DNA of 53,374 nucleotides, taken from positions 1 through 53,374 of the forward strand of contig DAIDJD010000143.1 of the NCBI GenBank assembly GCA_027451505.1, in the 5' to 3' direction. The stretch comes from a candidate division FCPU426 bacterium. GTDB taxonomy: Bacteria > Oederibacteriota > JAJYGY01 > DAIDJD01. Every line of letters starts with the position of its first letter. Within the stretch, counting starts at the first letter, position 1. The translations under genes and the position numbers were made by a program. Below, piece by piece: positions 42,229 to 53,374 of this stretch. The notes under the pieces are model-generated. The model made no database searches. It was not told the origin of the DNA and worked only from the letters and a program-made list of their open reading frames with translations.

Positions 42229-44169
42229 ATGTGTGGCATCGCCGGGGCCTTCGCCCCCCAACCGAATCCCCCGGATCTGCGCCCGGGCCTGGAGCGCGCC
42301 CTGGTCCGCCTTGAGCGGCGGGGCCCGGACGGCGGCGGCGTGGCCTCGGGCAAGGGCTGGGCCTTCGGGCACCGCCGCCTGGCGATCATCGACCTAGCGG
42401 GCGGGGCCCAGCCCTTCACCGGCCCCGGCGGCGCGGCCCTGACCTACAACGGCGAACTCTACAACACCCGCGAGCTGCGCGAGGAACTGCGCTCCGCGGG
42501 CTGGACCTTCACGACCGCCTCGGACACCGAGGTCGTGCTCAAGGCCTGGCTGGCCTGGGGGCCGGAATGCCTGCCGCGCTTCAACGGGATGTTCGCCTTC
42601 GCCGTCTACGATCCCTCGCGCGACAGCGTCTTCCTGGCGCGGGACCACTTGGGGATCAAGCCCCTGTTCCACCACACGGGGCCGGTGGCCTTCCACTTCG
42701 CCTCGACGCTGGCGGCCCTGCTGGCGTTCCCCGGGGTGGACGCCGTGGCCGACCCGGTCGGGGTGTCCCACTACCTCTCCACGACCAAGGTGGTCCTGGG
42801 GACGCGGACCCTGATCCGCGGGGTCTCCTGCCTGGAGCCCGGAACCTGGATGGAGGTCCGCAGGGGGCGCCCGCCCTCGGCGCCGGCGCGATATTGGAGC
42901 CCGCCCGCCGTCTCCCCGGAGCCTCTTCCCTTCGCCGAGGCGGCGGCACGGGTCCGGGAACTGGTGGGGGACTCGGTCCGCCGCCAACTCGTCAGCGACG
43001 TGCCGTTGGGCGGCTTCCTCAGCGGCGGCCTCGATTCCACCGTCATCGCCTCCCTGGCGTCCCGCCACTCGCCGCGCCCCTACCACGCCTACAGCGTGGG
43101 CTACGCCGAGGGGTCCGACGCCTACCAGGAATGGGACTACGCCCGCGAGGCGGCCGCGGCCTATGGTCTGGCCTGCGACGTGATCCCGCTGCGGCGGGAG
43201 GACTATCCCGGGGACTGGCGCCTGCTCATCGCCGAGAAGGGGCAGCCCCTGAGCACCCCCAACGAGGTCGGCATCTACCGGCTGGCCCGGGCCCTGAAGT
43301 CGGATTCCACGGTGGCCCTCAGCGGCGAGGGCGCCGACGAGGTCTTCGGCGGGTACTCGGTGTATTTCTCGGCCCACGACTACGAGCGCTCGCGCGGCCT
43401 GGACCGGATGGCCCCCGAGGGCCGGGCGTCCCTGTCCGCGGCCCTCAAGCGCATGTACGGGACCGACCGCTTCGGGTCCTTGACCGACCACTTCATCAGG
43501 ACCGTGTTTTGGATGGGATCCGGGGCCAAATTCGCGCTGCTGCGTCCGCAATGGCGGGAGGCCTTGCGCGACGACGAGACCCTGTTGCGCCACTACCTGG
43601 GCCGTTTCGAGGACCTGCGCGACCTGAGCCCCTTCGACGCGTACCTGCGCATGATCCTGGAGAAGAACCTGGAGAACCTGCTGTTCCGCCTGGATTCCAG
43701 CACCATGGCGGCCTCCGTGGAGGGCCGCGTACCCTTCACCGACCCCCGCCTGGTTTCCCTGCTGTTCTCGCTGCCGGGGAGCTACAAGATGGCCTGGGCC
43801 CCGGGGGTGGCCGAGGAACAGCGCCTGGGCGTCAACACCGCGGAAGCCGAGGCCCAGGGATGGATCACGGGAAAACTGCTGCTGCGGGCCGCCTTCGCCG
43901 ATGCCGTGCCGGAACGCATCCTGAAGCGGCCCAAGATGAGCTTCCCGGTGCCCTTCAGGGAATGGTTCGCCGGTCCCATGAGGCCCCTGGTGGAGTCCCT
44001 CCTGCGTGAGAACCCCTGGGCCCGGGACTGGCTCGCCCCGGCCGCGGTGGACGCCCTGGTCGCCGGGTTGAACCAACCGCACCAGGCCCTGCTGGCCTGG
44101 CCCCTGGTGAATCTGTGCCTCTGGCAGCAAGAGTTTGGGGTGTCCTGGGGATCCGGGAACCCGAATTAG
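42229..44169 (+). CDS. asnB: Asparagine synthase (glutamine-hydrolysing) family amidotransferase
   Basis: N-terminal MCGIAG, HRRLAIID, YNGELYN, LSGGLDS, SGEGADEVFGGY, SVEGRVPF, RPKMSF. The substrate may not be Asp. Confidence 0.9.
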   Translation: MCGIAGAFAPQPNPPDLRPGLERALVRLERRGPDGGGVASGKGWAFGHRRLAIIDLAGGAQPFTGPGGAALTYNGELYNTRELREELRSAGWTFTTASDTEVVLKAWLAWGPECLPRFNGMFAFAVYDPSRDSVFLARDHLGIKPLFHHTGPVAFHFASTLAALLAFPGVDAVADPVGVSHYLSTTKVVLGTRTLIRGVSCLEPGTWMEVRRGRPPSAPARYWSPPAVSPEPLPFAEAAARVRELVGDSVRRQLVSDVPLGGFLSGGLDSTVIASLASRHSPRPYHAYSVGYAEGSDAYQEWDYAREAAAAYGLACDVIPLRREDYPGDWRLLIAEKGQPLSTPNEVGIYRLARALKSDSTVALSGEGADEVFGGYSVYFSAHDYERSRGLDRMAPEGRASLSAALKRMYGTDRFGSLTDHFIRTVFWMGSGAKFALLRPQWREALRDDETLLRHYLGRFEDLRDLSPFDAYLRMILEKNLENLLFRLDSSTMAASVEGRVPFTDPRLVSLLFSLPGSYKMAWAPGVAEEQRLGVNTAEAEAQGWITGKLLLRAAFADAVPERILKRPKMSFPVPFREWFAGPMRPLVESLLRENPWARDWLAPAAVDALVAGLNQPHQALLAWPLVNLCLWQQEFGVSWGSGNPN

Positions 44170-44285: not shown

Positions 44286-44314
44286 TTGACGAAATATCTG
44301 GGCGACTTTATAAT
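44286..44314 (+). promoter_or_regulatory. Near-consensus sigma70 promoter of the hdr/tusA/dsrE operon
   Basis: TTGACG (44286-44291), N17, TATAAT (44309-44314). Confidence 0.85.
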
Positions 44315-44321
44315 TCAGTTG

Positions 44322-44345
44322 TTAATAAATTAATTAATTTATTAA
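44322..44345. promoter_or_regulatory. Perfect 24-bp AT-only palindrome at the predicted start site; putative repressor operator
   Basis: TTAATAAATTAA|TTAATTTATTAA, 7 nt after the -10 box. Confidence 0.75.
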
Positions 44346-44371: not shown

Positions 44372-44782
44372 ATGACGGATGCTGCGACGACAAGGCCGAC
44401 GCAAGATCGGATCCTGATCCTCGCGACCCAGGCCAGCTCCTACCCCGGAGCCAACGCCGTGGGCCAGGCCCGGCTCCAGTACGCGCCCGACACCTACATC
44501 TTCAGGGTACCGGATCCGGTGATGTTCCCCGAAACGTTCTACCTGCGCCGTTTCGAGCGCGGCTTCGCCGGGATCATCGTCATGTCCAGCGGCTCCGACT
44601 GCCCCTATGAGGGGGCCTACGCCCGCCTCTCCCAACGGATCGCCCGCGTCTACGACCTGATGAAGGAACGCGGCATCCCCTCCTCCCGGCTCAAGCTCAC
44701 GACCATCTGCACCGTGTGCCGGGCCGCCTTCCTAAAGGAGATCGCCTCGATGCGCGAGGCCATCGCGGCCCCCACCGGCTGA
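44372..44782 (+). CDS. Divergent MvhD/FlpD-like protein
   Basis: SYPGANAVGQARLQY...FRVP...FERGFAGIIV...DCPY...GIPSSRLKL matches the MvhD pattern, but most [2Fe-2S] Cys are missing and a CTVC motif is present. Confidence 0.8.
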   Translation: MTDAATTRPTQDRILILATQASSYPGANAVGQARLQYAPDTYIFRVPDPVMFPETFYLRRFERGFAGIIVMSSGSDCPYEGAYARLSQRIARVYDLMKERGIPSSRLKLTTICTVCRAAFLKEIASMREAIAAPTG

Positions 44783-44844: not shown

Positions 44845-45093
44845 ATGCCAGAACTCAGCGAAATCAAGGCCGCCAAGACGGTGGACGCGCGCTCGATGGC
44901 CTGCCCCGGCCCCCTGCTGGAGGCCAAAAAGGCCGTCGGCGGGGTCCCGGTGGGCCAGGTCCTGGAGGTGCTCTCCGGGGACAAGGGCAGCCGCGAGGAC
45001 ATCCCCGCGTGGTGCCGCAAGATGGGGCACGAATTCCTCGGGTTCCTCGAACGCGACGGCCACGACAGCCTCTTCCTCATCCGCAAGAGGTAG
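44845..45093 (+). CDS. tusA: TusA family sulfur carrier protein
   Basis: VDARSMACPGPLL (CPxP), GQVLEVLSGD, DIPAWC...GHEF. Confidence 0.93.
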   Translation: MPELSEIKAAKTVDARSMACPGPLLEAKKAVGGVPVGQVLEVLSGDKGSREDIPAWCRKMGHEFLGFLERDGHDSLFLIRKR

Positions 45094-45095
45094 CC

Positions 45096-46427
45096 ATGAC
45101 GGCCTCAGCCACCGTTTCCGCCTCCGCCGCGACGCTGGACGTCGACGTCCTGGTGGTGGGCGGGGGGATCGCCGGGCTTCAGTCCGCGCTCGAGGCCGCC
45201 GAACAGGGGCGCAAGGTGCTGGTGGTGGAGCGCCAACCCAGCATCGGTGGGCGCATGATCAACCTGAGCAAGGTCTTCCCGACCCTGGACTGCGCCAGCT
45301 GCATCACCACGCCGCGCATGGCCTCCGCCGCCCACCACCCCAACATCACCATCCGCACGTACTCGGAACTGGGCCCCATCCGCCGGGAGGGACCCCGCTT
45401 CACCTCCACCCTGCGCCAGAAGGCCCGCTACGTCGACGAAGCGGCCTGCATCGGCTGCAAGCGCTGCGAGGAGGCCTGCCCCGTGTTCGTCCCGGACGAA
45501 TACGAGCACGCCCTGGGGGCCCGCAAGGCCATCCGCATCCCCTTCACCAACGCCATCCCCCAGACGGCCGTGCTGGACATGGACCACTGCACCCTGTGCG
45601 GCCTCTGCGCCAAGGCCTGCCCCACGGACTGCATCGACTTCCTCCAGGAGGACGCCGAGATCCCGGTGACGGCGGGGGCCGTGATCCTGGCGACCGGCCA
45701 CGAACTCACCAGCATGGCCGCGAAGCCGGAGTATGGCAGGGCCGCCCTCCCCAACGTGATCTCCCCCATGCAGGCCGAACGCCTGCTGGCGCCCCACGGC
45801 GCCTACGGGCGGGTCCTGCGGCCCTCGGACGGGAAGATTCCGGACTCCATCGCCTACGTGCAGTGCGCCGGCAGCCGCGACGCCAGCCTGGGCGTGCCCT
45901 ATTGCTCGCGCGTCTGCTGCATGTACGCGGTCAAGCAAGCCATGCTCCTTTCCGGCTCCCTGCCGGTGGCCGACATCACCATCTACTACATGGACATCCG
46001 GGCCTTCGGGAAGGGCTACGAACAGTTCGTGGCCAGCGCCCGCGCCATGGGCATCAATTTCGTGAAGGCCAAGGTCGCGCGCATCCGCGAGGACGCCGAC
46101 CACAATCCGATCGTCCGAATCGAGCGCCAGGAGGCCGGCGGAACCGTCGAGGAGGTGCGCCACGACTTGGTGGTGCTCTCCCTCGGCATGCTCCCAGGGG
46201 CCGACCCCGAACGGGAGGGCTTCGCCGGGGTGCTCCGGGACGCGGACGGCTTCGTGCGCACGCCGGAGGCCAAGCTGTCGCCCACGCTCACCGACGAACC
46301 GGGGATCTTCGTCGCCGGGACGGCGGCCGGGCCCAAGGACATCGTCGATTCCATCCAGGACGCCGGGGGCGCCGCCATGGAGGCCCTGCGCCACCTGCGT
46401 TCCAACGGACTCGAGGGGCGGCCATGA
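45096..46427 (+). CDS. hdrA: HdrA/QmoA-B-like FAD/FeS protein, copy 1
   Basis: GGGIAG, KVFPTLDCASC, inserted 2x[4Fe-4S] (CIGCKRCEEACP, CTLCGLCAKACP), QCAGSRD...YCSRVCCMY, DIRAFGKGYE, GPKDI. Confidence 0.92.
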   Translation: MTASATVSASAATLDVDVLVVGGGIAGLQSALEAAEQGRKVLVVERQPSIGGRMINLSKVFPTLDCASCITTPRMASAAHHPNITIRTYSELGPIRREGPRFTSTLRQKARYVDEAACIGCKRCEEACPVFVPDEYEHALGARKAIRIPFTNAIPQTAVLDMDHCTLCGLCAKACPTDCIDFLQEDAEIPVTAGAVILATGHELTSMAAKPEYGRAALPNVISPMQAERLLAPHGAYGRVLRPSDGKIPDSIAYVQCAGSRDASLGVPYCSRVCCMYAVKQAMLLSGSLPVADITIYYMDIRAFGKGYEQFVASARAMGINFVKAKVARIREDADHNPIVRIERQEAGGTVEEVRHDLVVLSLGMLPGADPEREGFAGVLRDADGFVRTPEAKLSPTLTDEPGIFVAGTAAGPKDIVDSIQDAGGAAMEALRHLRSNGLEGRP

Positions 46428-48205
46428 ACGGCCCAGGAACGGCCCCGGACTCCGGGCTGGGCGAGGAAACCGAGGACGTGCGCGTGGGCGTGTACGTGTG
46501 CCACTGCGGTGGGAACATCAGCGACGTGGTCGACGTGAAGGAACTCGCCGCCCTATCGGCGGAATACCCCCACGTCGTGGTCGCGAAGGACTACCCCTTC
46601 ATGTGTTCGGACCCGGGCCAGGCCCTGATCGTCGAGGACATCAAGGCGCACGGGGTCAACCGGGTGGTGGTGGCCTCCTGCGCCCCGGCCCTCCACGAGC
46701 AGACCTTCCGGCGCGCGCTCCAGCGCGGCGGCCTCAACCCCTACCTTTACGAACACGTCAACATCCGGGAGCAGGTGAGCTGGGTCCACAAGGCGGACCA
46801 CGCCGCGGCGACCCGCAAAAGCTTGGCCCTGGTCCGTGCGGGTATCGAAAAGGTGGTGCGGCAGGACCCCTTGGAGGCCCTGCGGGTCTCGGCCGAACGC
46901 CGGGTCGCGGTCATCGGCGGGGGCGTGGCCGGGATGAAGGCCGCCCTGGCGGCGGCCGGCGCGGGCCTCGCGGTGACCCTGTTCGAGAAGGGCCCGGCCC
47001 TGGGAGGGCGCCTGCCCGAACTGGGCCGGGTTTTCCCCACCGAAGACGAGGGGGCGGCCCTGTCCCGCCGCATGGAGGAGGAGGTGCGTTCCCAACCCGC
47101 CATCGAGGTACGGCTGGGCGCCGAGGTCCGCAGGGTGGACGGCTTCGTGGGACGCTTCAGCGTGGAGGCCGGGGACGGACCTCCGGTGAAGGCCGGGGCG
47201 CTCATCGTGGCCACCGGCTATGACCCCTACGCCCCGGCGCCCGGCGAATTCGGGGCGGGCGGCCCCCTCACCGTGACCTTGCCGGAATTCCGGGCCGCGC
47301 TTGAGGGGCTTACCGAGGGCCCCCTGCTCACCTGGAAGGGCCGCCCCATCCGGGACCTGGCCTTCATCCACTGCGTGGGCAGCCGCCAAGTGGAGGGGAT
47401 CCACGCGCCCCAGGCCGACGGCAAGGTCAACGACTACTGTTCGCGGGTCTGCTGCACCGCGACGCTGCAGACCGCCGAGCGGGTGCTCGACCGGCACCCC
47501 GGCACGCGCGTCTACGACTGCTATAGGGACATACGCACCTATGGCCGGGGCCACGAGGCCATCTACGAGCGCGCCGCGAGGAAGGGGACGCTCTTCTTCC
47601 GCTACCGGGAGGACGCCCCCCCGACCCTGGTGGAGGAGGGCGGGCGCGCGCGCCTGAGGGTCAAGGACGTCCTGACCTGGGACACCGAGGTGGACCTTCC
47701 CGTGGACTTGGTCGTCCTGGCCACCGGGATGGTCCCGCGGGACATAGGGGCCCTCGCCGACTCGCAGAAGCTGCCCCGGGGCGCCGACCGCTTCCTGCAG
47801 GAGGCCCACCCCAAGCTCAGGCCGGTGGAACTGGCCAACAACGGGATCTTCCTCGCCGGGACGGCCCAGGCGCCGATGACCGTGGACGAGGCCTGCGCCG
47901 CCGCCGGGGCCGCCGCGTCAAAGGCCGCCCAACTGCTCCTGCCGGGGGAAATCCAGCTCGACCCGTTCATCGTGGCCCTGAAGCCGGAGCGATGCGACGG
48001 CTGCGGGGCCTGCCTCGACGCCTGCTCCTACACGGGCTCGCTGACCCTCAGCGGGGAGGGTCCCGGGAGACGGGTGGAGGTGAACCCGGCCTTGTGCAAG
48101 GGCTGCGGCGCCTGCGTGGCGGTGTGCCCCACGCGGGCTTTGGATATCGCCGGCTGGGGCCTCGACCAGTTCGAGGCCATGGCCGACGCGATCGCAGCGG
48201 TCTGA
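46424..48205 (+). CDS. hdrA: HdrA/QmoA-B-like FAD/FeS protein, copy 2
   Basis: N-terminal VYVCHCGGNI...FMCS...ASCAP..HEQTF...NIREQ; GGGVAG; HCVGSR...YCSRVCC; HPKLRP; C-terminal CDGCGACLDAC and CKGCGACVAVCP. Confidence 0.92.
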   Translation: MNGPGTAPDSGLGEETEDVRVGVYVCHCGGNISDVVDVKELAALSAEYPHVVVAKDYPFMCSDPGQALIVEDIKAHGVNRVVVASCAPALHEQTFRRALQRGGLNPYLYEHVNIREQVSWVHKADHAAATRKSLALVRAGIEKVVRQDPLEALRVSAERRVAVIGGGVAGMKAALAAAGAGLAVTLFEKGPALGGRLPELGRVFPTEDEGAALSRRMEEEVRSQPAIEVRLGAEVRRVDGFVGRFSVEAGDGPPVKAGALIVATGYDPYAPAPGEFGAGGPLTVTLPEFRAALEGLTEGPLLTWKGRPIRDLAFIHCVGSRQVEGIHAPQADGKVNDYCSRVCCTATLQTAERVLDRHPGTRVYDCYRDIRTYGRGHEAIYERAARKGTLFFRYREDAPPTLVEEGGRARLRVKDVLTWDTEVDLPVDLVVLATGMVPRDIGALADSQKLPRGADRFLQEAHPKLRPVELANNGIFLAGTAQAPMTVDEACAAAGAAASKAAQLLLPGEIQLDPFIVALKPERCDGCGACLDACSYTGSLTLSGEGPGRRVEVNPALCKGCGACVAVCPTRALDIAGWGLDQFEAMADAIAAV

Positions 48206-48217
48206 AGGGGGAGGGCC

Positions 48218-48511
48218 ATGACCGTCGAGGGCATGAAGAAGGTCCAGGAACAGCTCAAGACCCTGCGCAAAAGGCGCGGGCCCGTGCCGGAGGCGCTGGC
48301 CGAATCGGTCAAATCCGTGGCGCGGGCCCAGGGCGCGGTGCTGGCCGCGCTGAAGGGGGGGCCCCGCACGGTCCCGGAGCTCTCCGCCTCCACGGGCCTG
48401 CCCGGCGCCGAAGTCCTCTGGAACGTGACCGCGCTGCGGAAGTACGGGCAGATCGACGACGGCCCGGCGCGGGACGGCTACCCCACCTATGCGCGAAAGG
48501 AACGGCCATGA
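48218..48511 (+). CDS. Small winged-helix-like protein
   Basis: VLAALKGGPRTVPELSASTGLPGAEVLWNVTALRKYG...DGYPTY; ATGA-coupled to the next gene. Confidence 0.7.
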   Translation: MTVEGMKKVQEQLKTLRKRRGPVPEALAESVKSVARAQGAVLAALKGGPRTVPELSASTGLPGAEVLWNVTALRKYGQIDDGPARDGYPTYARKERP

Positions 48512-49656
48512 GCGACGTGGTCGACGCGGGCCTGCTTCCCGAGCTCAGGTCCTACGGCGCCTTCGACATCTCGGCATGCTTCAACTGCGGCAACTGCTCG
48601 GCGGTCTGCCCGCTGTCCGACGGGGAGGGTTCCTTCCCGCGGAGGATGATCCGCCTGGGCCAACTCGGCCTGCGGGACCGCCTCCTCGCCGGCCGCGAGG
48701 CGTGGTTGTGCTACGCCTGCGGGGAATGCACCGCCACCTGCCCGCGCCAGGCCGGCCCCTCCGACTACATGGCGGCCTTGCGGCGGTGGTCGGCGGCCCG
48801 GCACGAGCCCACCGGCCTGGGCAGGCTTATGCACCGCGGAGCCTGGGGCGTCTCCGCCGTGACCCTCGGGCTGGGGGCGGCCCTGGCGGCGGCGCTCCTC
48901 ACCGTGCCGGCCCCCCCCTCGCCGCCCCAGTGGATCTTCCGCGCGGTGCCCTACGGCGCCATCCACGAGGTGGGTCTGGCGGTGTCCGCCCTCCTGGCCG
49001 TGTCCCTGGCGTGGTCCCTGGGCCGCTTCCTGCGCCGGGCCGACCCGGGATTCCGGTCGCTGTCGAGGCCGCTGGCCGACCACCGCGCCGCGGCCAAGGC
49101 GACCCTGCGGGAACTGGTCCAACTCCGCCGCTGGGCTCCGGCGGCGCCGGGGCGTGCCGACCCCGGTTCACCCCGGGCCGCGCACATGCTGATCGCGGGC
49201 GGGTTCATGGCCCTCCTGGCGGCGACCAGCCTGGACTTCGTCTTCATCTACCTGCTCAAGTTCGCCTCGTTCCCGCCGGCCCGCGTCCTGGGCACCCTGG
49301 GAGGCGCGGCCCTGCTCCTGGGCGTGAGCGCGGCCCTGCTGCGGCGCGCCCGGGCGGCGGACCCGGCCGTGCGCCGCAGCCACGCCGCGGACTGGTGGCT
49401 GCTGGGGGCCCTATGGTTCCTGGCGGTGAGCGGATTCTGGCTGGAGGCCGACGTGGGCCTGCGCGTCGCCGGGGCGTTCCAGGACGGGGTGCTGCTGCTG
49501 CATGTGGTGGCTGCCCTAGAGCTCATCCTGCTGTTGGGCTCCGGCAAACTGGCCCACGTCGTGTACCGTCCCCTCTCCCTTTACCTCCATTACTTGGACG
49601 GGGGATCCGCGTCCGCCGGGGGCTGCGGCGGGGCCGTTTCGAGGAGCGCGCCATGA
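48508..49656 (+). CDS. QmoC-like protein: HdrC-type 2x[4Fe-4S] domain fused to a membrane cytochrome b domain
   Basis: CFNCGNCSAVCP and WLCYACGECTATCP, then about 6 TM helices with His at IHE, AHM, LHV and KLAHVVYRP. Confidence 0.87.
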   Translation: MSDVVDAGLLPELRSYGAFDISACFNCGNCSAVCPLSDGEGSFPRRMIRLGQLGLRDRLLAGREAWLCYACGECTATCPRQAGPSDYMAALRRWSAARHEPTGLGRLMHRGAWGVSAVTLGLGAALAAALLTVPAPPSPPQWIFRAVPYGAIHEVGLAVSALLAVSLAWSLGRFLRRADPGFRSLSRPLADHRAAAKATLRELVQLRRWAPAAPGRADPGSPRAAHMLIAGGFMALLAATSLDFVFIYLLKFASFPPARVLGTLGGAALLLGVSAALLRRARAADPAVRRSHAADWWLLGALWFLAVSGFWLEADVGLRVAGAFQDGVLLLHVVAALELILLLGSGKLAHVVYRPLSLYLHYLDGGSASAGGCGGAVSRSAP

Positions 49657-50210
49657 GCACGTCGCCCGAAGAACTCGACCGCAAGGTCGCCGAACTGGAG
49701 GGCCGGCTTTCCCGCCTGGAGGGATCCGCGCCGGAGGACCGCCTCAGCATGGTGGTGATGAGCGGGGACCTGGACCACCTGCTGGCCGCGTTCATCATCG
49801 CCACCGGCGCCAGCGCCATGTTCGAGAAGGTGAGCATGTTCTTCACCTTCTGGGCCACGGCGGCGCTGCGCGACCCCAAACTGGCCCCGCCCCGCAAGGA
49901 CGTGATGGGAGCCGCCTTCGGCGCGCTGCTGCCGAAGGGGCCCCCCAAGTTGGGCCTTTCCCGGATGCACTTCTGCGGCCTGGGAACCTCCGTGCTGAAG
50001 CGCCTGATGAAGAGCAAGGGGGTGCGCTCCCTGGACGAACTGATCGCGCTGGCGGCGGAGGGGGGCGTGGAGATCTTCGTCTGCGAGATGAGCATGAACC
50101 TCATGGGCATGCGCCGCGAGGAGCTCATCGACTACCCCGGGTTGAAGCTCGCCGGGGTGGCCACCTTCCTCCAGCGGGCGGGAGCCTCCAAGGCGTCGCT
50201 GTTCATCTGA
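49653..50210 (+). CDS. DsrE/DsrF/DrsH-like (DsrE2-type) sulfurtransferase/peroxiredoxin-like protein
   Basis: SMVVMSGDLD...AFIIATGA...MFFTFW...LSRMHFCGLG...CEMSMNLMG...AGVATFL. Confidence 0.92.
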   Translation: MSTSPEELDRKVAELEGRLSRLEGSAPEDRLSMVVMSGDLDHLLAAFIIATGASAMFEKVSMFFTFWATAALRDPKLAPPRKDVMGAAFGALLPKGPPKLGLSRMHFCGLGTSVLKRLMKSKGVRSLDELIALAAEGGVEIFVCEMSMNLMGMRREELIDYPGLKLAGVATFLQRAGASKASLFI

Positions 50211-51006
50211 ACGCCCCTGGGACCGCGGGCGCCGCCTCCGCGCCCGCCCCCGCGGGGGCGTCGGGGGCCCGGTTGAGCCTGCTCCGACGCAGGCGCCAAT
50301 CCGGCATCCGGCGGTCCAGGATGGCCCGGAAACGGGGCCCGTGGGTTCGGACCAAAAGGTGGGCCCATTCGTGCGTGAGGATGTATTCCAGGGCCTCCGG
50401 GGGCCGGCGGGCGAGTTCCAGGGCCAGGGTGATGGTCCGGGTGCGTATCGCGCAGCTCCCCCAGCGGGTGCGCATGGCGCGCACCCTTATCCGCGCCGCG
50501 TCCACCCCCAGGGCCTCCCGGAGCCCCGGCGCGAGCCGCAGGGCGGCGCCGACCAACTCCCTGGCGTACCAGCGCTCCACGGCCGCCGCGCGGATCCCCT
50601 GAGGCGCCGCTTCGGGAACCCGCAAATCCAGGATCCCATCGACCGCGGCTTCGGCCCGGGCCCGCGATCCGCCCGCGCGCACCCGCAGGATCCAGCGGGC
50701 GCCCCAGACCGTGAGAGCCTCCCCGTCCCGGTATTGGGGAGGGGACACCGGCGGCGGAAGGGCCCGACGCCGGCGAAGCACCCACTCCCGATGGTCCAGG
50801 ATGAAACTGAGGATGGACGCATCGGTGGCCCGCAGCGGGGCCGAAACGTGCAGGGCCCCATCGGGCGGGCGCAGGCTGAGGCGCAGGGTGCGGATGGCCT
50901 TGCGCCGGACCGTGGCGCTCAGGTCGCCGGCGGCCAGCGTGTAGGGGATCCCGGCGCGCGGCGCGGGTTCCGGGCTTCGCGGTGATGGGAAGGGCCAGGG
51001 GGGCAT
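50203..51006 (-). CDS. YgjP/SprT-like (M48-type) zinc metallohydrolase; start uncertain
   Basis: VSAP, MRTRWGSC, YILTHEWAHL, HGPRF. Confidence 0.9.
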   Translation of the reverse strand: MPPWPFPSPRSPEPAPRAGIPYTLAAGDLSATVRRKAIRTLRLSLRPPDGALHVSAPLRATDASILSFILDHREWVLRRRRALPPPVSPPQYRDGEALTVWGARWILRVRAGGSRARAEAAVDGILDLRVPEAAPQGIRAAAVERWYARELVGAALRLAPGLREALGVDAARIRVRAMRTRWGSCAIRTRTITLALELARRPPEALEYILTHEWAHLLVRTHGPRFRAILDRRMPDWRLRRSRLNRAPDAPAGAGAEAAPAVPGAFR

Positions 51007-51953: not shown

Positions 51954-53374
51954 TCAACGCACCACCGCGACCTTCAGGAAAGACCGCGAAAGGGGCGCCC
52001 CTGAGGCGCCCGCCCGGGAGAACTCCAGCACCGCGATGTACACGCCCGAGGCCAGCCCCGAGGTCGGGAAGATCAACGCGGCGGTTCCCCCCAACTCCCG
52101 CTCCACCAGGGAGCCCCGAACGTCATAAAGCAGGCCCTCCACCAAACCCCCCGCGACCGGGTTGTAGTCCACGGTCAGCGGCGTCCCGGCCATGGCTGGA
52201 TTGGGGCCGAACTTCAGGCCCGACAGGCCCCCCTGGTCCACGGACACCACATTGAAGCTCTTGGCGATCACGACGCGGCTGGCCCCTTCCTCGGAGAAGT
52301 AGACCAAGTCGGCGGTGTAGACGCCCGAGGCCACGGGGGAACCCGCGTCGCTGAGCCCGTCCCAGGAGGTCTGGGCCGGCGCGCCCCCCGAGGCCTCCGA
52401 AAGGTCGAACACCAGGGGATTTCCGGCCTTCCCCGTGGCCGGGTCATAAGCGGGCGCCCAGGTGGTGACGGGAAGGCTGAAGCCCACCACCCCGCCGGCG
52501 GAGGTCGGCAAGGTCAGCCTTCGGACGACCTCCCCCGAACTGTCGTAGATCACCAGGGAATTCTGGGGCCCTTCGTCGATGACCTGGATCGACCGGTCCA
52601 GGGTGGTGGCCTGGCCGAAGGTGTTCAGGTACTGGACCTCGATTTCGTAGATGCCGGAGGCCACCAACTGCCCGCCGCTGTTGAGCGCGGACCACACCAA
52701 CACGTCCGAGGCCGAACCGCTGGGCATCTTCAAGTATCCCGGGAAGGTGATGTGGACGCTGCCGTCGGGCCCCTGCGACCCGCCGTTGATGACCGTGGAA
52801 CTGAGCGTCAACTGGCCCGGGACGTATTCCGCGCTGCCGTTGAAGAGGGTATCCACCAACTCGCCGGCGCTGTTGTAGACGCCCACGGTCAATTGGTCGC
52901 CGCCGGGGAACGGGGTCGGCGACGCCGTGGGGCTGTCCGACGCAGTGGGGCTGGCCGTATAGGTCGGGCTGGGCGTGGGCGTGGGGCTGCGGGTCGCTGT
53001 GTCCGTGACCGTCGGCGTCGAGGTCCAGGATGGCGTGGCGGTGGGGGTCGCCGATGGGCTCGGCGAGTCGGTGAAGGTGGCCGACTTCGTGGCCGTGTCC
53101 GACGCCGTGAAACTCGCCGTGGGCGTGGCCGTGGCCGTGGCCGTGGGCGAGTCGGTGGAAGTGGAGGACTGGGTGGCCGTGTCCGACGCCGTGAAGCTCG
53201 CCGTGGGCGTCGCCGTGGCCGTGGCCGTGGGTGAATCGGTGGAGGTGGAGGACTGGGTGGCCGTTTCCGACGGCGTGAAGCTCGCCGTCCACGACGCCGT
53301 GGGCGTGGAGGTCGGGGTGCCCGTGGCCGTGTCCGAGGACGTGAAGGTCGGGGTGGCCGTGGGGGAGGACGTCG
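51954..53374 (-). CDS. C-terminal part of a large extracellular protein: Thr/Ser/Pro-rich stalk plus FlgD-Ig/T9SS-CTD-like domains (5' end outside the window)
   Basis: The frame of the 51954..52892 ORF appears to stay open upstream as TATRSPTPTPSPTYTASPT...; three VYNSAGELV/IYDSSGEVV/LYDVRGSLV ... ASGxY modules follow. Confidence 0.85.
   Translation of the reverse strand, partial: TSSPTATPTFTSSDTATGTPTSTPTASWTASFTPSETATQSSTSTDSPTATATATPTASFTASDTATQSSTSTDSPTATATATPTASFTASDTATKSATFTDSPSPSATPTATPSWTSTPTVTDTATRSPTPTPSPTYTASPTASDSPTASPTPFPGGDQLTVGVYNSAGELVDTLFNGSAEYVPGQLTLSSTVINGGSQGPDGSVHITFPGYLKMPSGSASDVLVWSALNSGGQLVASGIYEIEVQYLNTFGQATTLDRSIQVIDEGPQNSLVIYDSSGEVVRRLTLPTSAGGVVGFSLPVTTWAPAYDPATGKAGNPLVFDLSEASGGAPAQTSWDGLSDAGSPVASGVYTADLVYFSEEGASRVVIAKSFNVVSVDQGGLSGLKFGPNPAMAGTPLTVDYNPVAGGLVEGLLYDVRGSLVERELGGTAALIFPTSGLASGVYIAVLEFSRAGASGAPLSRSFLKVAVVR
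53089..53290 (-). repeat. 84-bp tandem coding repeat (about 2.4 copies)
   Basis: Units begin at 53089, 53173 and 53257 and encode TASFTASDTATQSSTSTDSPTATATATP. Confidence 0.88.

Follow-up and report, generated by a model that had tools for sequence, protein, structure and literature searches.

The stretch of DNA analysed here, hereafter the window, is the 53,374-nucleotide contig DAIDJD010000143.1 (assembly GCA_027451505.1) of a candidate division FCPU426 bacterium. Its open reading frame (ORF) at 44372-44782 on the plus strand encodes an MvhD-like protein in which most of the cysteines of canonical MvhD are gone and a different set of cysteine and aspartate residues is present. Within the MvhD family, the protein represents a separate branch of deep conservation, and its gene is the first in a seven-gene operon that also encodes the sulfur carriers TusA and DsrE2, two HdrA-type flavoproteins (HdrA1 and HdrA2) with complementary domains, a winged-helix-like (wHTH) protein and a QmoC-like membrane subunit. 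We propose tentatively, giving the idea nearly but not quite an even chance, that the MvhD-like protein is an iron-sulfur (Fe-S) electron-relay subunit whose ligands have moved to Cys77, Cys113, Cys116 and Asp48.

The ORF starts with ATG at 44372, ends with TGA at 44780-44782, contains no internal stop and encodes 136 amino acids. Residues 14-132 of the product matched positions 1-120 of the 123 in the Pfam FlpD profile (PF02662) with an E-value of 1e-15 and a score of 58.2 bits (cut-off 22.3), and the protein also matched the C-terminal MvhD part (positions 639-768) of the NCBIfam HdrA2 model. A phmmer search of the PDB sequences gave six matches at E ≤10, all of which were MvhD, VhuD or ElpC chains; the solved chains 5odc_D, 9sw2_D, 7bkb_F and 8rvu_F/8rvv_F were aligned with E-values of 7e-9 to 3e-7. 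The AlphaFold2 (AF2) model, predicted from a 34-row alignment with a mean pLDDT of 90.3 and a pTM of 0.84, was an alpha/beta fold of four strands and four helices. Foldseek matched this model to 5odc_D, 5odh_D, 8rvu_F and 7bkb_F with TM-scores of 0.80-0.83 and E-values of about 1e-10, and the next matches after the MvhD/ElpC chains were lumazine synthases at about 1e-3. With VIA-align, the MvhD/ElpC chains gave Z-scores of 17.8-18.4 and root-mean-square deviations of 1.7-2.1 Å over 126-128 residues, and the next fold gave a Z-score of 8.4. Both structure comparisons reported the best chain of each PDB entry, which kept any HdrA chains in the matched entries off the lists. The protein is a member of the MvhD/FlpD family by sequence threshold and by fold.

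An earlier note on this DNA had described the product as MvhD-like, with lost [2Fe-2S] cysteines, one remaining cysteine and a new TICTVC, and the phmmer alignments and the Pfam FlpD match confirmed this description. In the alignments to solved chains, 'CNWC' of MvhD paired with T19-Q-A-S22, 'VMCSGR' with V46-P-D48-P-V, and 'GGCHxGDC' with S72-S73-(gap)-G-S-D76-C77, while 'EWISAAEG', where MvhD has no cysteine, paired with T111-I-C113-T-V-C116. Accordingly, one of the five canonical cysteines is left (C77) and C113-T-V-C116 is new. The note had also taken both cysteines of the N-terminal CxxC of MvhD as ligands. This point had to be corrected, since the available excerpts of PMC13580544 describe the second of them, Cys16, as an additional conserved cysteine that is not a ligand. 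Because Cys16 is a non-ligand in that source, we infer that the [2Fe-2S] ligands of MvhD are the first N-terminal cysteine, the beta2 cysteine and both beta3 cysteines. Among these, C77 alone persists, and the combination of four such ligands with the conserved Cys16 that characterizes functional MvhD is absent from the window protein. No TGA was present in frame ahead of the stop codon, and the homologues terminate at the same place, in line with the note's statement that selenocysteine does not account for the missing cysteines; the lack of an in-frame TGA rules it out as their cause.

The residues of interest are all encoded on the plus strand. Asp48 (GAT, 44513-44515) occupies the position of the canonical beta2-loop cysteine ligand, at which some relatives (P0151 type and the L067 locus) carry cysteine, and it falls in the columns of the cysteine in 'VMCSGR' and of that in the P0151-type 'LPCSS'. 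Asp76-Cys77 (44597-44602), the latter being the retained canonical ligand, opens the near-invariant DCPYEGAY. The new Cys113-Thr-Val-Cys116 (44708-44719) lies between beta4 and the last helix and is invariant in the family alignment. In the AF2 model, D48 follows beta2 (41-46), C77 follows beta3 (65-72), and C113/C116 lie between beta4 (107-111) and the helix at 117-132. Beta2, beta3 and beta4 carry the candidate ligands at their C-terminal ends or beyond them, on the canonical cofactor edge. The pLDDT dipped in both cysteine loops, to 87 in residues 71-80 and 90 in residues 111-120.

We then evaluated the conservation of this pattern. A word-indexed search yielded 246 relatives among 272 candidates, and in the best 120 of the 246 (66-100% identity) C[TSAV][VIL]C was found in 120/120 and DCP[YFH] in 119/120. 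When representatives at 50% identity were searched exhaustively with HMMER, 178 proteins were obtained at E ≤1e-3 and just two at ≤1e-30; therefore, the close family collapses into very few clusters. For the operon homologues, 72 rows were used, namely the window and 71 loci from a scan of one genome per species, all of them metagenome-assembled genomes (MAGs). C113 and C116 were present in 72/72 rows, C77 and D76 each in 71/72, and D48 in 64/72; each of residues 76-83 (DCPYEGAY) was conserved at a level of at least 97%. One of the eight rows without D48 is cut at the N-terminus (L071), and the other seven have C73 (usually together with C22), C46 or C48. When the set was widened to 275 unique sequences, 172 of them carried D48, C77, C113 and C116 together, and C19 and the CxxC were mutually exclusive: all 27 rows with C19, which are of the canonical type, lacked C113/C116, and all rows with the CxxC lacked C19. 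The conservation of the new cysteine pattern lies far beyond chance, and the gene represents a conserved family with a new pattern, not decay. The view of the note that the protein is repurposed, for which it had named conservation of CTVC in homologues as the test, was supported in the 72 operon homologues and the 120 best matches alike.

For the phylogeny, 91 rows were placed in a quick maximum-likelihood tree with canonical MvhD as the root; the alignment has few columns and many forks are unresolved. The proteins bearing the CxxC formed a single clade of 82 rows (SH-aLRT 99), whose basal members (P0172 and P0151 type) retain the canonical beta2 and beta3 cysteines. Within it, the operon family formed a clade of 74 rows (support 96) with early branches that carry C22, C73, C77 and the CxxC, and a crown of 59 rows including the window (support 99) had S22, D48, S73, C77 and the CxxC. 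At least four candidate ligands were found in 75 of the 82 rows. This picture looks like a swap of ligands rather than the addition of a thiol site; the tree is compatible with such a swap and does not demonstrate it statistically.

The partners of the MvhD-like protein were characterized in the same way. HdrA1 (QmoA-like; 45096-46427, plus) consists of a flavin adenine dinucleotide (FAD) core with an inserted 2x[4Fe-4S] domain and the motif FPTLDCASC, has neither the N- nor the C-terminal domain, and was aligned with residues ~140-560 of solved HdrA, which comprise the FAD core and the inserted ferredoxin domain (E = 7e-114). HdrA2 (QmoB-like; 46424-48205, plus) has an N-terminal Cys-rich domain, an FAD core and a C-terminal 2x[4Fe-4S] domain, with no fused MvhD domain; it was aligned with residues 7-242 and 326-651 of 8rvu_a (E = 1e-125) and lacks the inserted domain. 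In place of the Cys pair of HdrA1, HdrA2 has FPTEDEGAA. Of the 70 loci with an HdrA1 match, 65 showed the FPTLDCASC pair (four had no motif in the aligned segment and one was uncovered), and the pair was absent from HdrA2 in 68/69 loci. The accessory parts of a single HdrA are divided between HdrA1 and HdrA2, and the Cys pair belongs only to HdrA1. The missing N-terminal domain is the norm among HdrA1 homologues and not a peculiarity of the window copy. The association of the MvhD-like protein with HdrA is one of genetic linkage, HdrA1 being encoded at 70/71 and HdrA2 at 69/71 loci. In addition, one Terriglobia MAG has the MvhD-like gene fused in frame upstream of HdrA1 with a linker of ~50 residues (L066, 7986-9761), which lends weak support to a physical association of the two proteins; at the sister locus L064, a stop codon and a change of frame separate the two genes.

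For methanogen complexes, the excerpted text of PMC13580544 describes HdrA's N- and C-terminal domains together with MvhD as a mobile arm, which carries the cluster of MvhD to the Cys pair and the FAD in the other protomer of HdrA. According to the same excerpts, Asp71 of MvhD sits at the Cys202/Cys205 site of HdrA' and also contacts an unidentified ligand at this Cys pair. When counted along the alignment with 9sw2_D, Asp71 corresponds to D76 of the MvhD-like protein.

From these comparisons we infer cluster binding, a docking site and an electron route for the MvhD-like protein. It would be the small redox adaptor of a TusA/DsrE2-linked membrane complex that resembles type II Qmo and is formed by HdrA1, HdrA2 and the QmoC-like subunit. 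The MvhD fold would be kept and the metal site shifted: with the N-terminal ligand and one beta3 ligand gone, C113/C116 after beta4 would join the retained C77, and Asp48 would take the former position of the beta2 cysteine. These four residues may hold an Fe-S cluster, either as a 3Cys+1Asp site or as a 3-Cys site with an open iron. By homology, the protein would dock on the arm of HdrA2, its D76/C77 face would swing to the single FPTLDCASC pair and the FAD of HdrA1, and single electrons would pass between the flavin of HdrA1 and an outside partner. An arm on HdrA2 and a target on HdrA1 are proposed by homology, because Asp71 is equivalent to D76 and because the HdrA parts are split between the two proteins. 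Neither a hydrogenase nor a formate dehydrogenase module is encoded in the operon, so that this partner would most likely be the sulfur-carrier side (TusA/DsrE2) or the Fe-S domain of the QmoC-like subunit.

Several observations weigh against a relocated cluster. Seven of the 82 rows of the CxxC clade have just two or three candidate ligands (P0123, P0127, P0131, P0133, P0107 with G48, P0111 with S48, and P0094 with S77). One of these types, P0127, is encoded on a metagenome contig (L077, 30-2642) with TusA, MvhD-like, HdrA1 and HdrA2 genes in a row, where the protein lacks D48, C73 and C77 and the two cysteines of CTVC are its only ones; therefore, it cannot bind a cluster on its own. The metagenome scan for this CxxC-only type returned the L077 locus alone, which shows its operon context and not the size of its lineage. 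A test of compensation between the loss of C73 and the presence of Cys/Asp in the beta2 loop gave raw counts of 69/6/4/3, and on supported branches it was reduced to one independent pair (sign test, p = 1); covariation between the two was not significant and is not claimed. Furthermore, D48 comes after beta2 and the CxxC after beta4, two strands that are not adjacent in a flavodoxin-like sheet. The earlier note had left the choice between a thiol/persulfide site and a ligand set for a different cluster. For the crown, the cluster fits better in view of the position of D48, the 75/82 rows with four or more candidate ligands and the exclusion of C19, and L077 keeps the thiol site alive.

The strongest competitor, and a serious one chiefly on account of the CxxC-only lineage in the same operon, is a cluster-free dithiol relay, to which we give clearly less than an even chance. 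Here HdrA1, with its FAD, FPTLDCASC and thioredoxin-reductase-like core, would be paired with the MvhD-like protein as a thioredoxin, C77 serving as a third thiol, and two-electron thiol-disulfide exchange would run to or from persulfide or polysulfide on TusA/DsrE2, thereby taking over the substrate task that HdrB has in Hdr/sHdr. The CxxC is indeed the sole cysteine feature that is invariant in the whole operon family, L077 included, and in the AF2 model it is part of a strand-loop-helix element. Such an arrangement of a CxxC resembles redox-active CxxC sites, though a T-V pair between the cysteines is atypical of the known motifs of this kind. TusA adjoins the MvhD-like protein in 70/71 loci even where the gene order is swapped, and the two are the best conserved products (median identity 71% for MvhD-like and 73% for TusA, against 33-67% for the other five). 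The operon also has no obvious substrate site, in that a profile search detected no HdrB/CCG-domain protein among its products. The absence of HdrB stated in the earlier note is correct for the operon and not for the genome, which encodes CCG-domain proteins on contigs C94 and C135, away from the operon. The excerpts of PMC13580544 also voice the suspicion that MvhD and the Cys pair of HdrA engage in thiol or ligand chemistry. However, the dithiol relay leaves unexplained why D48 stands at the exact former ligand position in 64/72 rows and why the CxxC never occurs together with C19, and basal members of the CxxC clade keep the full canonical cluster cysteines as well. One elaboration, to which we give a rather low probability, is that the MvhD fold has been turned from an Fe-S carrier into the 'thioredoxin' of HdrA1, making the complex a quinone-linked protein-persulfide oxidoreductase without HdrB, or a variant in which the open iron of a 3-Cys [4Fe-4S] cluster binds carrier sulfur. 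In the thioredoxin-like form, the FAD/FPTLDCASC of HdrA1 would swap its disulfide with C113/C116 (plus C77), after which a persulfide or polysulfide on TusA/DsrE2 would be reduced or formed.

It is improbable that the protein takes no part in redox chemistry itself and is a structural adaptor that would only position other domains, comparable to the MvhD-type domains fused in HdrA, HdrL or QmoB, with its three Cys and the Asp holding a structural metal such as zinc, or nothing. Four fused FlpD C-termini (P0203, P0209, P0211 and P0221) show that cluster-free MvhD-type modules exist, and the L077 type tolerates the loss of C77 and D48. These four proteins, which are probably QmoB/HdrL-like to judge from their Fer4-FlpD architecture, lost the cluster cysteines but never gained a CxxC; therefore, a mere structural role does not require one. 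In contrast, the free-standing MvhD-like protein has the CxxC in 72/72 rows and a DCPYEGAY conserved at 97% or more over many phyla, and few products of the operon are as well conserved. The equivalent of Cys16 is the sole cysteine left in the four fused MvhD-type domains, and this residue, which is no ligand and lies close to the Cys pair of HdrA, may be of more general importance than the cluster itself. The suggestion of the earlier note that the protein is the detached N-terminal domain of HdrA1, taken here to mean that it descends from this domain and supplies its [4Fe-4S] cluster in trans, is very unlikely. HdrA1 begins directly at the FAD domain and the L066 gene is fused upstream of it, but the Pfam FlpD match and positions 639-768 of the NCBIfam HdrA2 model group the protein with MvhD, the frame is broken at the sister locus L064, and the Cys pattern of the HdrA N-terminal domain (VCHCGG...MCSDPG...ASCAP in HdrA2) is missing. 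A search of longer proteins for fusions yielded one unrelated match, of histidine-kinase type, among 451 candidates. As a statement of ancestry the suggestion found no support, MvhD being matched at 1e-8 to 1e-15 and HdrA2 residues 1-159 at E = 0.59 by BLASTP. Least probable of all, to a degree that we hardly consider it, is the role of a normal MvhD linking a hydrogenase with HdrA. Fold and Pfam family would fit and the genome does have one [NiFe] hydrogenase, but four of the five canonical cysteines are gone, the operon has no hydrogenase gene while its seven-gene arrangement recurs in 71 related loci, and the hydrogenase of the genome is located on another contig amid Hox-type diaphorase genes.

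The operon comprises seven plus-strand genes in the order MvhD-like, TusA, HdrA1, HdrA2, wHTH, QmoC-like and DsrE2, in a window with a GC content of 70.6%; it lies between the genes for an asparagine synthase (42229-44169) and, in convergent orientation, a YgjP-like peptidase (50203-51006, minus). TusA (44845-45093; Pfam TusA, E = 1.4e-21) carries the sulfur-carrier cysteine of CPGP, Cys20, which was present in 27/27 sequences. A prediction of the complex of TusA with the MvhD-like protein from family alignments gave a score of 0.01 against a mark of 0.32, without controls, and speaks neither for nor against their association. In the crown lineages, TusA contains another cysteine (PAWC); most loci of the deep branches, where the MvhD-like protein still bears C22 and C73, have alanine at this position, L067 excepted. 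The residue patterns hint at co-variation of thiols between the two neighbours. The wHTH gene (48218-48511) encodes a cysteine-free protein of 97 residues with weak matches to HTH_20 and DprA_WH, both below the cut-offs. The QmoC-like subunit (48508-49656) has an N-terminal HdrC-like 2x[4Fe-4S] domain (Fer4_8, E = 6.5e-10) followed by a hydrophobic region, with a weak Nitrate_red_gam match below the cut-off. DsrE2 (49653-50210) matched Pfam DrsE_2 (E = 3.6e-42) and NCBIfam DsrE2 with 73.8 bits, below the cut-off of 210. Three ATGA-type overlaps of 4 nucleotides, between HdrA1 and HdrA2 (46424-46427), wHTH and QmoC-like (48508-48511), and QmoC-like and DsrE2 (49653-49656), suggest translational coupling.

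The first gene is preceded by an AT-rich spacer that contains two elements (44286-44345). A sigma-70-like promoter, TTGACG-17-TATAAT, at 44286-44314 (plus) agrees with the consensus at 11 of 12 positions, a consensus match only, and was the one site found compared with a mean of 0.4 in shuffled sequences. Directly downstream of its -10 box, a perfect AT palindrome of 24 nucleotides at 44322-44345 is formed by the overlapping 13-nucleotide arms TTAATAAATTAAT and ATTAATTTATTAA, which are 100% complementary. The palindrome looks like a candidate repressor operator, and the wHTH protein of the operon is a candidate for the regulator acting there. Toward the end of the window, a large open-ended ORF (51954-53372, minus) encodes Thr/Pro/Ser/Ala-rich repeats followed by a region with an FlgD Ig-like domain, and its product is probably a secreted or surface protein.

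In a tblastn search with the seven window proteins, TusA was found in 70/71 related loci, wHTH and QmoC-like each in 61/71, and DsrE2 in 59/71. The full set at a coverage of at least 60% was present in 52/71, and most of the others were cut by contig ends. The loci belong to Elusimicrobia, Armatimonadota, Spirochaetes, Fibrobacteres, Margulisbacteria, Chloroflexota, Acidobacteria and 'delta proteobacterium' MAGs. The order MvhD-TusA occurs in the window and its few nearest relatives, and TusA-MvhD in the other loci. The median identity to the window proteins was 67% for HdrA1, 57% for HdrA2, 56% for DsrE2, 45% for wHTH and 33% for QmoC-like, so that, with the values given above, the MvhD-like protein is among the two most constrained products of the operon.

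The source genome (2.36 Mb in 252 contigs, 89.6% complete) was also searched as a whole. It contains one FlpD-family gene, and neither dsrA nor aprA was found in this 89.6%-complete assembly. The sole [NiFe] hydrogenase found is encoded on contig C98 (L076, 860-5746) and is of the Hox type, not Mvh: the cluster comprises the [NiFe] large subunit together with a NuoG-like Fe-S protein and a thioredoxin-like [2Fe-2S] protein, HypB/CobW being encoded upstream of it and adenylate kinase downstream. A canonical hydrogenase subunit was rejected on this ground. Since the Hox-type hydrogenase is encoded elsewhere and dsrA and aprA were not found, we concluded that the MvhD-like protein does not belong to the hydrogenase and that the complex does not serve an adenosine-phosphosulfate (APS) or sulfite reductase. 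The genome further encodes a YeeE/YedE-type transporter and, on contig C185, a heme-copper oxidase, which points to an aerobic or microaerobic host.

Compared with the MvhD/VhuD/ElpC subunits of the methanogen Mvh-, Fdh- and Elp-Hdr complexes (5odc_D, 7bkb_F, 8rvu_F and 9sw2_D), the window protein shares the family PF02662, the fold, a similar size and HdrA-type neighbours. It also shares the 'G-x-D-C-x-Y' beta3 loop including the Asp that, in the excerpts of PMC13580544, lies at the Cys pair of HdrA'. The identity is 23-26%, however, and the window protein has T, S, D and S in place of the N-terminal Cys, Cys16, the beta2 Cys and the first beta3 Cys, adds the CxxC, and has TusA, DsrE2 and a QmoC-like subunit as partners instead of hydrogenase, Fdh or Elp, genes for none of which are present within the operon. 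Canonical QmoB contains a C-terminal MvhD-type domain, as stated in the excerpts of PMC3333476. The MvhD-type domains fused in HdrA, HdrL or QmoB likewise serve an HdrA-like pair and a QmoC-type anchor and have, in the four examples, lost the canonical cluster cysteines. They differ from the window protein, which is free-standing with conserved C77, CxxC and D48, in that the four keep the Cys16 equivalent alone. Type I QmoABC has the fused MvhD domain of QmoB and a link to aprBA, whereas HdrA2 of the window ends after its ferredoxin domain and no aprA was found in the genome.

A closer counterpart is the 'type II' QmoAB(C), which is nearer to HdrA and was reported from Vulcanisaeta moutnovskia, Ammonifex degensii and organisms without Dsr/Apr; in the excerpts of this report, its function is given as unknown and its role as requiring experiments (Neukirchen et al. 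2023, PMC10504309). The window operon resembles it in the HdrA-like QmoA/QmoB pair, the QmoC-type anchor and a genome in which dsrA and aprA were not found. It differs in the MvhD-like subunit and the link to TusA/DsrE2, which go unmentioned in those excerpts of PMC10504309. All seven genes of a type II Qmo-like, sulfur-carrier-linked system lie in one string in the window. By annotation, the 90%-identity cluster of the CxxC-bearing relative P0167 includes proteins of V. moutnovskia and V. souniana, and this annotation, not gene neighbourhoods, links the CxxC clade to type II Qmo.

HdrA-type flavoproteins act in methanogenesis, sulfate reduction (Qmo) and sulfur oxidation (sHdr). An MvhD-type or QmoC-type subunit is not known from sHdr. 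Like the window operon, sHdr combines an HdrA-type flavoprotein with TusA and DsrE-family carriers, but it has HdrB/HdrC and lipoate-binding proteins, and the window operon encodes no CCG-domain protein (comparison with the excerpts of PMC11094781). A search of the literature found no description of the cysteine pattern of the MvhD-like protein or of the function of the operon, Chernyh et al. 2020 and supplementary files lying outside the search.

How a small adaptor feeds the flavin of HdrA is still an open question according to the excerpts of the 2026 Mvh-Hdr-Fmd structure paper (PMC13580544). Judged from its gene neighbourhood, the MvhD-like protein is part of a widespread, uncharacterised membrane redox complex that is encoded beside sulfur carriers. 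The family amounts to a natural experiment, in which the adaptor keeps its fold and the HdrA-facing loop while its redox centre is rebuilt, and in which sulfur carriers and a quinone anchor stand in the operon in place of hydrogenase and HdrB. Deciding between a cluster and a dithiol would reveal whether electrons or sulfur atoms are moved between the quinone pool and carrier-bound sulfur.

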